NCBI RefSeq assembly: GCF_044647545.1
Contig: NZ_CP172818.1
Length of the DNA stretch: 64,000 bases
Reading direction: 5' to 3' (one strand)
From: Escherichia coli
GTDB taxonomy: Bacteria; Pseudomonadota; Gammaproteobacteria; Enterobacterales; Enterobacteriaceae
In this document: positions 2,025 to 64,000 of the stretch, piece by piece
Position numbering within the stretch: the first letter of the stretch is position 1
Layout of the letters: every line of letters starts with the position of its first letter
The notes under the pieces: generated by a model
What the model was told of the DNA's origin: nothing
Database searches by the model: none
Seen by the model: the letters and a program-made list of their open reading frames with translations, nothing else
Position numbers and translations under genes: made by a program

Positions 2025-3344
2025 TTAACTGCCCCAACGACTTTGCAGATAGCTGACCGCTTGTTGAGTCTGTGGCTTATTCAGATAGTCCTCACGGAAC
2101 AAGATTGTGCCGCTAATTTCTGGCACGGCATCGTTAAGATCGAGCTGCTTTTTCAGTTCCGGTACGCCGCCGTTAATCATCCAGTCTGGCTCTATCTTTG
2201 AAGGTTCACCCACTTTATAGAAGGCGATACCGATATACAGGCGGGTCCTGGTCGGTTTAACGACATCCGCCCACCATTTTGCCAACACGTCATAACGTGC
2301 GGCACTCCGTGAGAACGGCCAGTAAATTTGGGGAGCAATGTAATCCAGCAACCCTTGTTCCACCCATCGACGGGTATCAGCGTAGGATTCGTCATAGGCT
2401 GCCGCGCCTCGGGTATCGGAACCGAGCGGATCGTGTGATCGGTTACGCCACACGCCTGCCGGGCTAACGCCAAATTCGACTTCCGGCTTAATGCTTTTAA
2501 TGGTGTGCGATACCTTCGCAATTAACTGCTGAGTATTGTTGCGCCGCCAGTCTGCTTTTGACGCAAATGCGCCGCCGTATTTGCGGTACGTTTCGTTATC
2601 ATTTAGCCGTGAAGCTGGTGACTCAGTATAGAAATAGTCGTCAAACTGCACGCCATCTACCGGATAGCGGGAAACCACTTCTGCGACTATTGATGTGATC
2701 CAGTCCTGAACCTCAGGGATGCCCGGGTCGAGGACAAAGCGATCGCCGGACGTTCTGATCCAGTCGCGGTGTTGCACATAGACGCTGGCCGGTTGTTGAG
2801 ACAGGGTGCTATTCAGTTCCCTGATAGTACCGGGCTTCGTATTAACCGATACGCGATAGGGGTTAAACCATGCGTGTACTTTCATCCCACGCTTGTGGGC
2901 TTCGTCGAGCATGAATTGCAGCGGATCGTAACCCGGATTTTCACCAATCTTACCGGTCATAAGATCGGACCACGGCAAAATTTTCGATGGCCACAGGGCG
3001 GTACCATCCGGCTTGACCTGAAAAAAGACCGTGTTTATGCCGAGACGTTGCAGATGATCCAGTTTGTCGATCATCGCCTGTTGTTGTACACGGGCCCGGC
3101 TGGTGGGGTTACTAATGTTAACCGAGGAAAGCGGTGGCCAGTCGAGGCGAGACACCGTGGCCAGCCAGATGCCACGCATCGGTTGTGACGATTGTTGCGT
3201 CGTGGCTGGTGGCTTTGAACCCGCTGGTGGTGTCACCATGGACTCTGGAGGCGTGCTTTTACAACTACACAGTAAAAGTGCCAGTGCAACCAGTATCGCT
3301 GGTCTTCTAATCGCTAATTTCTCGTTTCGGGAGCAGATATCCAT
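2025..3344 (-). CDS. yddW: lipoprotein YddW, glycoside-hydrolase-like family, 439 aa
   Basis: 439-aa ORF with signal peptide and lipobox-like LLLCSC near N-terminus; position between dosC and gadC matches K-12. Confidence 0.8.
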   Translation of the reverse strand: MDICSRNEKLAIRRPAILVALALLLCSCKSTPPESMVTPPAGSKPPATTQQSSQPMRGIWLATVSRLDWPPLSSVNISNPTSRARVQQQAMIDKLDHLQRLGINTVFFQVKPDGTALWPSKILPWSDLMTGKIGENPGYDPLQFMLDEAHKRGMKVHAWFNPYRVSVNTKPGTIRELNSTLSQQPASVYVQHRDWIRTSGDRFVLDPGIPEVQDWITSIVAEVVSRYPVDGVQFDDYFYTESPASRLNDNETYRKYGGAFASKADWRRNNTQQLIAKVSHTIKSIKPEVEFGVSPAGVWRNRSHDPLGSDTRGAAAYDESYADTRRWVEQGLLDYIAPQIYWPFSRSAARYDVLAKWWADVVKPTRTRLYIGIAFYKVGEPSKIEPDWMINGGVPELKKQLDLNDAVPEISGTILFREDYLNKPQTQQAVSYLQSRWGS

Positions 3345-46930: not shown

Positions 46931-48118
46931 ATGAACTTATCCCTACGACGCTCTACCAGCGCCCTTCTTGCCTCGTCGTTGTTATTAACCATCGGACGCG
47001 GCGCTACGCTGCCGTTTATGACCATTTACTTGAGTCGCCAGTACAGCCTGAGTGTCGATCTAATCGGTTATGCGATGACAATTGCGCTCACTATTGGCGT
47101 CGTTTTTAGCCTCGGTTTTGGTATCCTGGCGGATAAGTTCGACAAGAAACGCTATATGTTACTGGCAATTACCGCCTTCGCCAGCGGTTTTATTGCCATT
47201 CCTTTAGTGAATAACGTGACGCTGGTGGTGCTCTTTTTTGCCCTTATTAACTGCGCCTATTCCGTTTTTGCTACCGTGTTGAAAGCCTGGTTTGCCGACA
47301 ATCTTTCCTCCACCAGCAAAACGAAAATCTTCTCAATCAACTACACCATGCTCAACATTGGCTGGACCATCGGTCCGCCGCTCGGCACGCTGTTGGTGAT
47401 GCAGAGCATCAATCTGCCCTTTTGGCTGGCAGCTATCTGTTCCGCGTTTCCCATGCTTTTCATTCAAATTTGGGTAAAGCGCAGCGAGAAAATCATCGCC
47501 ACGGAAACAGGCAGTGCCTGGTCGCCGAAAGTTTTATTACAAGATAAAGCACTGTTGTGGTTTACCTGCTCTGGTTTTCTGGCTTCCTTTGTTAGTGGCG
47601 CATTTGCTTCATGCATTTCACAATATGTGATGGTGATTGCTGATGGGGATTTTGCCGAAAAGGTGGTCGCGGTTGTTCTTCCGGTGAATGCCGCCATGGT
47701 AGTTACGTTGCAATATTCCGTGGGCCGCCGACTTAACCCGGCTAACATCCGCGCGCTGATGACAGCAGGCACCCTCTGTTTCGTCATCGGTCTGGTTGGT
47801 TTTATTTTTTCCGGCAACAGCCTGCTAATGTGGGGTATGTCAGCTGCGGTATTTACTGTCGGTGAAATCATTTATGCGCCGGGCGAGTATATGTTGATTG
47901 ACCATATTGCGCCGCCAGGAATGAAAGCCAGCTATTTTTCCGCCCAGTCTTTAGGCTGGCTTGGTGCTGCGATTAACCCATTAGTGAGTGGCATAGTACT
48001 TACCAGTCTGCCGCCTTTCTCGCTGTTTATCATCTTAGCGTTGGTGATCGTTGCTGCGTGGGTGCTGATGTTAAAAGGAATTCGTGCAAGACCGTGGGGG
48101 CAGCCCGCGCTTTGTTGA
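46931..48118 (+). CDS. ydeE: MFS transporter YdeE, 395 aa
   Basis: 12-TM-type MFS ORF; synteny. Confidence 0.85.
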   Translation: MNLSLRRSTSALLASSLLLTIGRGATLPFMTIYLSRQYSLSVDLIGYAMTIALTIGVVFSLGFGILADKFDKKRYMLLAITAFASGFIAIPLVNNVTLVVLFFALINCAYSVFATVLKAWFADNLSSTSKTKIFSINYTMLNIGWTIGPPLGTLLVMQSINLPFWLAAICSAFPMLFIQIWVKRSEKIIATETGSAWSPKVLLQDKALLWFTCSGFLASFVSGAFASCISQYVMVIADGDFAEKVVAVVLPVNAAMVVTLQYSVGRRLNPANIRALMTAGTLCFVIGLVGFIFSGNSLLMWGMSAAVFTVGEIIYAPGEYMLIDHIAPPGMKASYFSAQSLGWLGAAINPLVSGIVLTSLPPFSLFIILALVIVAAWVLMLKGIRARPWGQPALC

Positions 48119-48244
48119 TTTAAGTCGAACACAATAAAAATTTAATTCAGCCTTCGTTTAGGTTACCTCTGCTAATATCTTTCTCATTGAGATGAAAATT
48201 AAGGTAAGCGAGGAAACACACCACACCATAAACGGAGGCAAATA

Positions 48245-48340
48245 ATGCTGGGTAATATGAATGTTTTTATGGCCGTACTGGGAATAATTTTATTTTCTGG
48301 GTTTCTGGCCGCGTATTTCAGCCACAAATGGGATGACTAA
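48245..48340 (+). CDS. mgtS: small membrane protein MgtS (YneM), 31 aa
   Basis: ATG at 48245: MLGNMNVFMAVLGIILFSGFLAAYFSHKWDD stop; below the ORF-track size cut-off; followed by an intrinsic terminator. Confidence 0.8.
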   Translation: MLGNMNVFMAVLGIILFSGFLAAYFSHKWDD

Positions 48341-48367
48341 TGAACGGAGATAATCCCTCACCTAACC

Positions 48368-48408
48368 GGCCCCTTGTTACAGTTGTGTACAAGGGGCCTG
48401 ATTTTTAT
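48368..48408 (+). terminator. rho-independent terminator of mgtS
   Basis: Stem ggcccctt / aaggggcc with 14-nt loop followed by TGATTTTTA. Confidence 0.6.
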
Positions 48409-48415
48409 GACGGCG

Positions 48416-48441
48416 AAAAAAAACCGCCAGTAAACCGGCGG
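48416..48441 (-). terminator. minus-strand rho-independent terminator (dgcZ transcript or 3-prime end of a small RNA such as MgrR)
   Basis: On minus strand: ccgccggtttactggcgg hairpin followed by TTTTTTTT; lies in the mgtS-dgcZ intergenic region where K-12 encodes the sRNA MgrR (strand and exact ends not verified here). Confidence 0.45.
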
Positions 48442-48558
48442 TGAATGCTTGCATGGATAGATTTGTGTTTTGCTTTTACGCTAACAGGCATTTTCCTGCA
48501 CTGATAACGGATCGTTGACACAGTAGCATCAGTTTTCTCAATGAATGTTAAACGGAGC

Positions 48559-49449
48559 TTAAACTCGGTGAATCACGTTTTGTTCGTCAATAAACATACA
48601 GCGATTTCTTCCGGTTTGCTTACCCTCATACATTGCCCGGTCCGCTCTTCCAATGACCACATCCAGAGGCTCTTCAGGAAATGCGCGACTCACACCTGCT
48701 GTCACGGTAATGTTGATATGCCCTTCAGAATGTGTGATGGCATGGTTATCGACTAACTGGCAAATTCTGATACCTGCACGACATGCTTCTTCATCATTAT
48801 CCGCTTTGACAATAATGATAAATTCTTCGCCCCCGTAGCGATAAACCGTTTCGTAATCACGCGTCCAACTGGCTAAGTAAGTTGCCAGGGTGCGTAATAC
48901 TACATCGCCGATTAAATGCCCGTAGGTATCATTAACCAATTTAAATCGGTCAATATCCAACAACATTAAATAAAGATTCAGAGGCTCAGCGTTGCGTAAC
49001 TGATGATCAAAGGATTCATCAAGAACCCGACGACCCGGCAATCCCGTCAAAACATCCATATTGCTACGGATCGTCAGCAAATAAATTTTGTAATCGGTTA
49101 ATGCCGCAGTAAAAGAAAGCAACCCTTCCTGAAAGGCGTCGAAATGCGCGTCCTGCCAGTGATTTTCAACAATAGCCAACATTAATTCCCGACCACAGTT
49201 ATGCATATGTTGATGGGCAGAATCCATTAGCCGAACGTAAGGTAATTCATCGTTATCGAGTGGCCCCAGATGATCAATCCACCGACCAAACTGGCACAGT
49301 CCATAAGAATGGTTATCCGTTATTTCTGGCTTACTGGCATCTCTCGCGACCACGCTGTGAAACATACTTACCAGCCACTGGTAGTGGGCATCGATAGCCT
49401 TATTGAGATTTAACAAGATGGCATCAATTTCCGTTGTCTTCTTGATCAT
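48559..49449 (-). CDS. dgcZ: zinc-regulated diguanylate cyclase DgcZ (YdeH), 296 aa
   Basis: Trimmed to MIKKTTEIDAILLNL start; C-terminal GGDEF domain (RYGGEEFIIIV) and N-terminal zinc-sensory region. Confidence 0.9.
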   Translation of the reverse strand: MIKKTTEIDAILLNLNKAIDAHYQWLVSMFHSVVARDASKPEITDNHSYGLCQFGRWIDHLGPLDNDELPYVRLMDSAHQHMHNCGRELMLAIVENHWQDAHFDAFQEGLLSFTAALTDYKIYLLTIRSNMDVLTGLPGRRVLDESFDHQLRNAEPLNLYLMLLDIDRFKLVNDTYGHLIGDVVLRTLATYLASWTRDYETVYRYGGEEFIIIVKADNDEEACRAGIRICQLVDNHAITHSEGHINITVTAGVSRAFPEEPLDVVIGRADRAMYEGKQTGRNRCMFIDEQNVIHRV

Positions 49450-50096: not shown

Positions 50097-50459
50097 ACTG
50101 ACTCCTTAATTGCGTTTGGTTTGACTTATTAAGTCTGGTTGCTATTTTTATAATTGACAATTAAGATTACTTCCAATTGTTATAAGGCATTTAAAATCAG
50201 GTAACTAGCTGTCAAATATTCAGAGAATTTAACTCACTAAGGTTAAGAAGAAGATTAAAGAGTCTTAAACATATTTCAGAATAATCAGATTTATAAATTT
50301 GAAAATTATTATAACGGAAGGGTATACAAAAAAAGATTTTGCTGGCGACTGCGAAACGGCATTCGCATTAGCGGTGAAGTTTGCCCTCGCCCAGCTGCTG
50401 CAATTACTGCTATAACGAGGCTGGTCTGGCGATAAATCCAGGCCAGCCATTGGTGGTGT

Positions 50460-59436: not shown

Positions 59437-60011
59437 CTACGGCAGTGCTGGCCATTCAATATCCTGTGCAGTTGACGTATCAACACGGTTCAGCAATACC
59501 CGATACTTTTTCCATGCTTCCAGCAACGGGGTTTCTTCCTCCGTTGCAATTTCCAGATCTGCAGCATCCTGAAGCGGCGCAATATGCTCACTGGCTACCT
59601 GCATCAGGTTGTTTTTTTTTCTTCCGCTTCCCGTATCCGAAACAGTTTTTCTGCTTCCTCATCATTCACCCAGGATACGCCGTCCCACTTCTGATACTCC
59701 CCTGCTGGCGACAACCAGGTGACATTCTCTGGTAGCGGTCCGAGTTCAGAAATAAACAATGCGTCCCCCGACGCCACGTCATAGACCGTTTTACCACGAT
59801 GGTCTTCAACAATATTCCACGATTCATTTTCACTGTTAAAAACTGCCACAAAGCCAGCAGGAATTTCCGGTGGGGCGATATCTGTAGAATTAGCTGGCAG
59901 CCCTGTATGAGGTGGAATATATGCGTCACCTTCACCAATAAACTCATTAGTTCCGGCCAGCAGGTTATAAATTTTTACGGTACGTGATTGTTCACTCATT
60001 CTGAATGCCAT
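59437..60011 (-). pseudogene. tfaQ: tail-fibre assembly protein TfaQ, disrupted by a -1 frameshift in an A9 homopolymer
   Basis: ORF 59604-60011 (135 aa) ends ...EEKKTT stop inside a run of nine A (coding strand; T-run at 59612-59620). Shifting frame by one A continues as [58 protein letters not shown] to a stop at 59437-59439, giving the expected 191-aa protein. Confidence 0.8.
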
Positions 60012-63347: not shown

Positions 63348-63579
63348 TAAGCAAAAAAGCTCCCGAAGGAGCCTTCATTTTCACTTTCTTAAATCTAACG
63401 ACAGATGGCTAACATTTAAGTATTGTGAAATATTATCAAATGTAATCATCATTGATTTACAAAAGATACATTTTGCCCCGAAAGGATTTCTGTCAGAAAC
63501 ATCAAAAGATGATGTTCTATACTGAGAACCATGGCAACACGGGCATCTAAAGTGAATATGGTTTGTAATATTTTCTACC

Positions 63580-63792
63580 TCAAAGTGCCACTACATGAAC
63601 AGCTGCAGGGCCTTTAGGTCCGTTCTCAATACCAAATTCGACTTCCTGATTCTCAGTTAACGTTTTGAAATCGTTGCTCTGAATAGCTGAGAAATGCACA
63701 AACACATCTTTGCTACCATCTTTCGGCGTGATGAAACCAAAACCTTTTTCAGGGTTAAACCATTTCACTAAACCAGTCATTTTGTTAGACAT
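63580..63792 (-). CDS. cspI: cold-shock protein CspI, 70 aa
   Basis: [38 protein letters not shown]... with RNP1 motif KGFGFI and RNP2-like VFVHF; long AT-rich 5-prime leader upstream (63793-64000) as typical for csp genes. Confidence 0.9.
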
Positions 63793-64000
63793 CATTATTA
63801 CCTTTTGAAGAAGTTAGCCCTTGGGCAGAATGGTCCGAAAAAAAAATATCAGAGAGAAAAACCAACAAGGAAATCTCAAGAGGTACAAATAATAAAATTA
63901 TAACAATGACTGCTTCAGATAATTTTGTAACAAACCAGAACACCATTAACGCATGATTAACCAACCATAGCAAGGATTACTTTTGTAAAGAAAAACACAC

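Follow-up and report, generated by a model that had tools for sequence, protein, structure and literature searches.

The minus-strand segment 48416-48513 of the window (the whole 64,000-nucleotide stretch of Escherichia coli DNA that was analysed) was identified as the gene of MgrR, a known small RNA that is already published, as is its convergent neighbour. Taken together, the observations leave hardly any doubt that this gene is driven by PhoP, that its product is aided by Hfq and that it converges on mgtS-mgtT. The identity and position of the gene, its structural elements, the conserved layout of its promoter and the conserved convergent terminators were established here. MgrR belongs to the characterised components of the PhoQ/PhoP response to low magnesium. 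Lipopolysaccharide modification (eptB) and the sensitivity to antimicrobial peptides are under its control, and it acts also on pitA and rpoS. The E. coli K-12 RNA is said to have been described by Moon and Gottesman in 2009. The confirmation brings no new biology and has some practical use for annotation; the additions made here are small and are not discoveries, namely which PhoP half-sites are conserved, and the finding that the MgtT frame is mostly terminator sequence and confined to Escherichia. The elements of the gene are as follows:

48416-48513, minus strand: mgrR, 98-nt Hfq-dependent, PhoP-activated small RNA (K-12 b4698 by alignment, and inside the RF01407 match)
48479-48509, minus strand: MgrR 5' stem-loop, nt 5-35 (minimum-free-energy fold)
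48462-48477, minus strand: A-rich, (ARN)-type motif AAAAGCAAAACACAAA, nt 37-52 (read from the sequence; unpaired in the fold)
48446-48459, minus strand: seed UAUCCAUGCAAGCA, nt 55-68 (region U55-A68 from PMC6239178; unpaired in the fold)
48416-48442, minus strand: MgrR intrinsic terminator, stem nt 72-91 (48442-48423) plus U tail (terminator scan and fold)

A scan of the whole window with Rfam models matched RF01407 (STnc560 Hfq-binding RNA, the Rfam entry of MgrR) to 48334-48547 on the minus strand over all 214 positions of the model, scoring 281.9 bits (gathering score 55; E = 1.8e-64). The model is wider than the mature RNA, taking in 34 nt of promoter and 82 nt past the 3' end; the match therefore overshoots on both sides, and its coordinates are unfit as gene ends. 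The ends were transferred from K-12 MG1655 (NC_000913.3), in which the curated annotation places the 98-nt ncRNA mgrR (b4698) at 1622817-1622914 on the minus strand: alignment identified window 48416-48513 as its counterpart, with G48513 as +1 and the last U at 48416. The initial annotation had put forward 48416 to about 48520, minus strand, as a candidate for MgrR, to be compared with a reference sequence. In that comparison, with 97 of 98 positions identical to b4698, the strand and the 3' end proved exact, whereas the 5' end lies at 48513, making the RNA 7 nt shorter than proposed.

The only difference from K-12 MgrR is at nt 4, in the single-stranded 5' end: C in the window and U in K-12. 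The window shares with K-12 MgrR the locus, strand, 5' stem-loop, A-rich motif, seed, terminator and promoter. Locally the genes run ydeE, mgtS, mgtT, mgrR, dgcZ, ydeI, with the same neighbours in K-12, and the literature also places MgrR between mgtS and dgcZ (PMC8545128). Many sequenced strains match the 571 bases around the locus at 100% identity, and K-12 MG1655 matches them at 99%; of 5426 complete E. coli genomes, 5416 have the region. With the 98 nt of the window as query, 4145 of these 5416 records fell in the band of at least 99% identity. Since one mismatch in 98 nt amounts to 98.98% and falls below this band, the C at nt 4 is, judging by these sequence counts, probably the commoner allele in E. 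coli and that of K-12 the minority one. RefSeq E. coli genomes annotated by PGAP list only mgtT under the MgrR match, and an mgrR feature is present only in the curated MG1655 record.

The 98-nt RNA folded with -25.9 kcal/mol (z = -2.89) into a 5' stem-loop, an open centre and a terminator hairpin, in agreement with published RNase probing (PMC6239178). In the same study the (ARN)5-like motif of MgrR was single-stranded, lay in the open centre and served as Hfq distal-face site, and U55-A68 was the region pairing with target mRNAs. The terminator stem ACCGCCGG/CTGGCGGT at 48442-48423 has 8 pairs, 6 of them G-C, and a loop of 4; it is followed by eight U's ending at 48416, a tail that looks like a site of the Hfq proximal-face type. 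An A-rich (ARN) motif combined with a U-tailed terminator is what MgrR has in common with class II Hfq-dependent small RNAs such as ChiX (PMC6239178), a likeness that for the MgrR of the window is known from sequence motifs only.

The seed is identical between the window and K-12. Its targets include the eptB and ygdQ mRNAs. When duplex prediction was limited to the open centre of MgrR, the published eptB site was recovered: the seed was predicted to pair with positions -7 to +9 of K-12 eptB, across the AUG, at -17.6 kcal/mol, a value reached by 122 of 1000 shuffles and thus not significant. Prediction with full-length MgrR yielded a long, spurious duplex with eptB that was no better than those of shuffles, and was discarded.

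Relatives were collected by searching a single genome of each species for a 20-mer taken from the MgrR seed, which gave 67 loci in about 15 enterobacterial genera (Escherichia, Salmonella, Citrobacter, Enterobacter, Lelliottia, Leclercia, Kosakonia, Phytobacter, Pluralibacter, Yokenella and others). The identity of the seed in all 67 loci was imposed by the 20-mer used for retrieval. The A-rich stretch flanking the seed and the terminator stem were nearly invariant. Among 35 sequences the terminator stem was either unchanged or kept its pairing, and the innermost pair was changed on both sides in six. RNAalifold applied to 35 cross-genus MgrR sequences returned the terminator stem only: there are too many indels for the 5' stem-loop, which required a subgroup alignment with a named structure. 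In such a set of 18 Escherichia, Citrobacter and Salmonella sequences, compensatory changes on both sides were found at 5 of the 11 pairs of this stem-loop, and 89.9% of cells were paired, against 24-47% when the partners were slid.

Three records outside the enterobacteria or of broad assignment carry enterobacterial mgrR/mgtS sequence: a Caldithrix MAG (L007), whose MgtS and MgtT are identical to those of the window, Chryseobacterium sp. 18061 (L058) and a Proteobacteria MAG (L012). They probably reflect contamination or mis-binning in public assemblies.

Upstream of the RNA, the following features were located:

48538-48554, minus strand: mgrR PhoP box CGTTTA-ACATT-CATTGA, -41 to -25, exactly 12 nt upstream of the -10 hexamer (cross-genus alignment)
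48520-48528, minus strand: mgrR extended -10 TGcTACTGT, with TG at 48528-48527 and hexamer TACTGT at 48525-48520 (alignment)
48560-48565, minus strand: extra in-phase half-site AGTTTA, within the last codons and stop of dgcZ (pattern search)
48559-49449, minus strand: dgcZ (ydeH), diguanylate cyclase, upstream of mgrR in the same orientation (ORF list and annotation)

The PhoP box starts 5 bp past the end of dgcZ, and the -10 hexamer ends about 6-7 nt before +1 (G48513). All 63 distinct promoters of the relatives had the same sequence layout: (C/T)GTTTA, 5 nt, (C/T)(A/G)TT(G)A, exactly 12 nt, and TGnTAnnnT. In the central half-site (C/T)GTTTA, G2, T3, T4 and A6 were invariant and T5 was present in 61 of 63 promoters; in the downstream half-site, of which CATTGA in the window is a degenerate form, the TT was found in 63 of 63. 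T1, A2 and T6 of the -10 hexamer were likewise invariant (63/63), and the TG was kept in 59-63 of the 63. A PhoP box upstream of the mgrR start, suggested in the initial annotation as something to look for, is thus present in a degenerate and conserved form.

This conserved box (48554-48538) has 4 mismatches to the textbook consensus and surfaced only through the cross-genus alignment. A search of the whole window for KGTTTA-N5-KGTTTA with at most 2 mismatches gave 16 matches against 20.7 expected from shuffles; such matches are not enriched and are uninformative alone. The consensus search pointed to a second box with 2 mismatches, AGTTTA-AGCTC-CGTTTA at 48565-48549, which was rejected as a conserved box, the mean number of mismatches at this place being 3.5 outside Escherichia; its AGTTTA is a third in-phase repeat, found essentially in Escherichia only. 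A scan for sigma-70 promoters returned no match between 48000 and 48800, as expected for a promoter without a -35 hexamer.

This design agrees with published work, in which the PhoP box consensus is given and the box is placed at the -35 position in PhoP-activated genes (PMC7667037). In K-12, mgrR-lacZ and yneM-lacZ fusions follow PhoP levels (PMC3536696), and convergent transcription of mgrR and mgtS is PhoPQ-dependent (10.1101/2021.06.30.450655). The mgrR promoters resemble those of the PhoP-activated mgtA, mgrB and mgtS in having a direct repeat of the xGTTTA type, 5 nt apart, 12 nt before the -10; they differ in the degenerate downstream half-site CATTGA and, in Escherichia, in the third upstream half-site.

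Two minor observations concern this region. Enterobacteriaceae bacterium RIT691 (L014) has two MgrR copies about 1.6 kb apart (1438-1457 and 3032-3051, minus strand), and the copy adjacent to mgtS is without the PhoP-box promoter, unlike all other loci. At DgcZ codon 294 (48570, minus strand), three residues from the C terminus, the window has His (...VIHRV) where K-12 has Asn (...VINRV); the extra PhoP half-site is about 5 bp downstream of this position.

On the opposite strand, the following features face mgrR:

48245-48340, plus strand: mgtS (yneM), 31-aa PhoP-induced membrane protein, convergent with mgrR (ORF list, NCBIfam, RefSeq)
48144-48178, plus strand: mgtS promoter, with PhoP box AATTCA-GCCTT-CGTTTA (48144-48160), 12 nt, and extended -10 TGcTAATAT (48170-48178)
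48368-48408, plus strand: mgtS intrinsic terminator, bulged 13-pair stem-loop at 48368-48398 plus UGAUUUUUAU (fold)
48340-48444, plus strand: mgtT, 34 codons, its ATG overlapping the mgtS stop as TAATG (ORF list; RefSeq b4775 / WP_211180496.1)
46931-48118, plus strand: ydeE (ORF list and annotation)

The 31-aa mgtS ORF had been recognised in the initial annotation, and its product matched the NCBIfam model NF033842 'small_MgtS' with 80.6 bits against a cut-off of 35. The mgtS promoter has the same design as that of mgrR and forms a conserved block in an alignment of 29 mgtS upstream regions. Downstream of the gene, a G+C-rich stem-loop GGCCCCTTGT...ACAAGGGGCC at 48368-48398 is followed by TGATTTTTAT at 48399-48408. 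The 75 nt of 48341-48415, containing this terminator, folded with -25.3 kcal/mol (z = -3.15 relative to shuffles). Because its stem is bulged, a simple terminator scan missed it and found, of the two facing terminators, only that of MgrR; it was folding that revealed it.

The two convergent terminator-like elements described in the initial annotation are thus both present at the places given, the plus-strand one by fold and the minus-strand one by scan and fold. The gap between them, given there as 8 nt, which is nearly correct, is 7 nt when counted from the end of the T-rich tail (48408) to the start of the A8 run (48416), and 9 nt from the T5. Calling 48340-48558 intergenic was not fully correct: RefSeq places mgtT at 48340-48444 on the plus strand, across both terminators.

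Synteny analysis found mgtS convergent to mgrR in 35 loci, with a spacer of 74-113 nt between the two genes and a GGCCCC...GGGGCC hairpin plus U-run 3' of mgtS in every one; among distinct mgtS-mgrR spacers of other enterobacteria, the hairpin and U-run were kept in 31 of 31. The arrangement, which is kept across genera, resembles other convergent pairs with facing intrinsic terminators in that two unidirectional terminators, each a hairpin plus U-run, are directed towards one another, here 7 nt apart. It differs from them in that two separate hairpins are present in place of one bidirectional hairpin, and in that a translated ORF, mgtT, spans both.

Two hairpins outside these terminators were also seen on the plus strand. 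Between the mgtS stop and the mgtS terminator, 48341-48367 is near-constant in length and moderately conserved in sequence across genera, and a small GGA...UCC hairpin was predicted there in many of them. The last codons of ydeE contain a terminator-like hairpin (48093-48109) whose T-rich tail overlaps the stop codon at 48116-48118; this hairpin probably terminates ydeE transcripts.

The dependence on PhoP, the binding of Hfq, the targets and the translation of MgtT are known from the literature and presumably hold for this strain. On these grounds the following course of events is highly probable. At low Mg2+, phosphorylated PhoP would bind the direct repeat at -41 to -25 and, with the extended -10 and no -35 hexamer, would start transcription from G48513. 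Hfq, bound to the U tail and the A-rich stretch, would help the seed (nt 55-68) to pair with the start regions of mRNAs, and this pairing would repress the eptB, ygdQ and pitA mRNAs; the repression would alter lipopolysaccharide modification and the balance of Mg2+ and phosphate. The gene at the same time converges on the PhoP-activated mgtS-mgtT operon, with the intrinsic terminator of the operon 7 nt from the MgrR 3' end.

The whole mgtS terminator lies inside the reading frame of mgtT, which also covers the last 29 nt of MgrR (48416-48444) and has its stop codon 36 nt past the U-rich tail of that terminator. The sequence 48340-48444 has no differences from K-12, the encoded protein is identical, and WP_211180496.1 is annotated in a genome that is 100% identical over the query. 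Translation of MgtT has been reported from Ribo-RET and epitope tagging (10.1101/511675), from profiling in low Mg2+ (PMC11429745) and from PIRT-seq (PMC12350097); neither deletion nor overproduction of mgtT gave a phenotype (PMC11429745).

Since mgtT ends at 48444, an intact mgtT mRNA can form only if transcription continues beyond the mgtS terminator, and over at least 29 nt it is antisense to MgrR. This overlap could be regulatory: translation of mgtT would lower termination at the mgtS terminator, antisense RNA would extend into mgrR, and RNase III would cleave the resulting duplex of 29 bp or more, so that the amounts of two PhoP-induced products would become linked. We consider this reading, the linkage included, unlikely. 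The positions of the mgtT stop and of the overlap given above are compatible with it, as is the overlap of stop and start, U(A/G)AUG, which is present in each of the 35 loci with mgtS (L003-L067). In addition, the terminator scan found no plus-strand terminator downstream as far as 48800, and an RNase III-dependent site has been mapped at MG1655 1622816, which corresponds to window 48415 and which the authors attribute to antisense transcripts (PMC5371410). Those RNase III data, however, do not distinguish the strands, and no cleavage of the site occurred in vitro (PMC5371410). The absence of a phenotype upon deletion or overproduction also argues against a regulatory overlap, and so does the length of the mgtT frame, which varies from 7 to 83 codons across the 35 loci. 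The more particular proposal, that translation of mgtT sets the level of mgtS read-through into MgrR antisense RNA and that the act of translating matters more than the MgtT protein, seems quite improbable; if it were true, an RNase III-sensitive duplex would couple two PhoP-induced regulators.

Another reading is that 48340-48444 has been conserved through selection on the MgtT protein, in place of the RNA elements, which we regard as very improbable. The detection of MgtT by epitope tagging, Ribo-RET and PIRT-seq (PMC11429745, 10.1101/511675, PMC12350097) and the identity of the window and K-12 proteins are in its favour, but the residues that are conserved map to the hairpin arms: RPL and KGP correspond to the GGCCCC and GGGGCC arms, and KKPPVNRR to the A8 run and the MgrR stem. 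In many genera the frame meets stop codons at codons 8-15 while the hairpins persist, and no NCBIfam model matched MgtT. The frame is not conserved outside Escherichia; a length of 34 codons is seen in E. coli and E. albertii alone, and E. whittamii has 30. The variable length of the frame and the coincidence of its conserved residues with the hairpin arms and the complement of the MgrR terminator give MgtT, from its sequence, the look of a recent ORF, restricted to Escherichia, that is superimposed on two terminators.

No minus-strand terminator other than that of MgrR was found between 48558 and 48416, by terminator scan or in the sequence, so that dgcZ transcripts, the gene ending at 48559, probably also read through to 48442-48416 and end there. 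The view that 48416-48513 is merely the dgcZ 3' untranslated region and its hairpin merely the dgcZ terminator, with no independent small RNA, would account for this, but it is scarcely credible in the face of the conserved PhoP-type promoter between the dgcZ stop and +1, the Rfam match and K-12 ncRNA annotation, the published PhoP-dependent MgrR (PMC3536696, 10.1101/2021.06.30.450655) and the 51 of 67 loci that keep RNA and promoter without an upstream dgcZ, and it was rejected on these synteny data. MgrR is accordingly an autonomous unit, its promoter and RNA having been kept though no more than 16 of the 67 loci, in Escherichia and some Citrobacter, have dgcZ upstream. The statement in the initial annotation that the minus-strand hairpin terminates a transcript coming from the dgcZ side therefore needs amending: mgrR has its own promoter and is not only dgcZ read-through, while the ending of such read-through at this place is probable.

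Elsewhere in the window, 50097-50459 lacks ydeJ, the gene found between ydeI and dcp in K-12; in the matching strain only a small pseudogene fragment is annotated there. The Rfam model IS009 (RF02111) matched 59471-59668 on the minus strand with 204.7 bits (gathering score 117). The cspA thermoregulator model (RF01766) matched 63534-63951, also on the minus strand, with 109.2 bits against a gathering score of 78, which suggests a cold-shock protein gene with a 5' leader near the end of the window.
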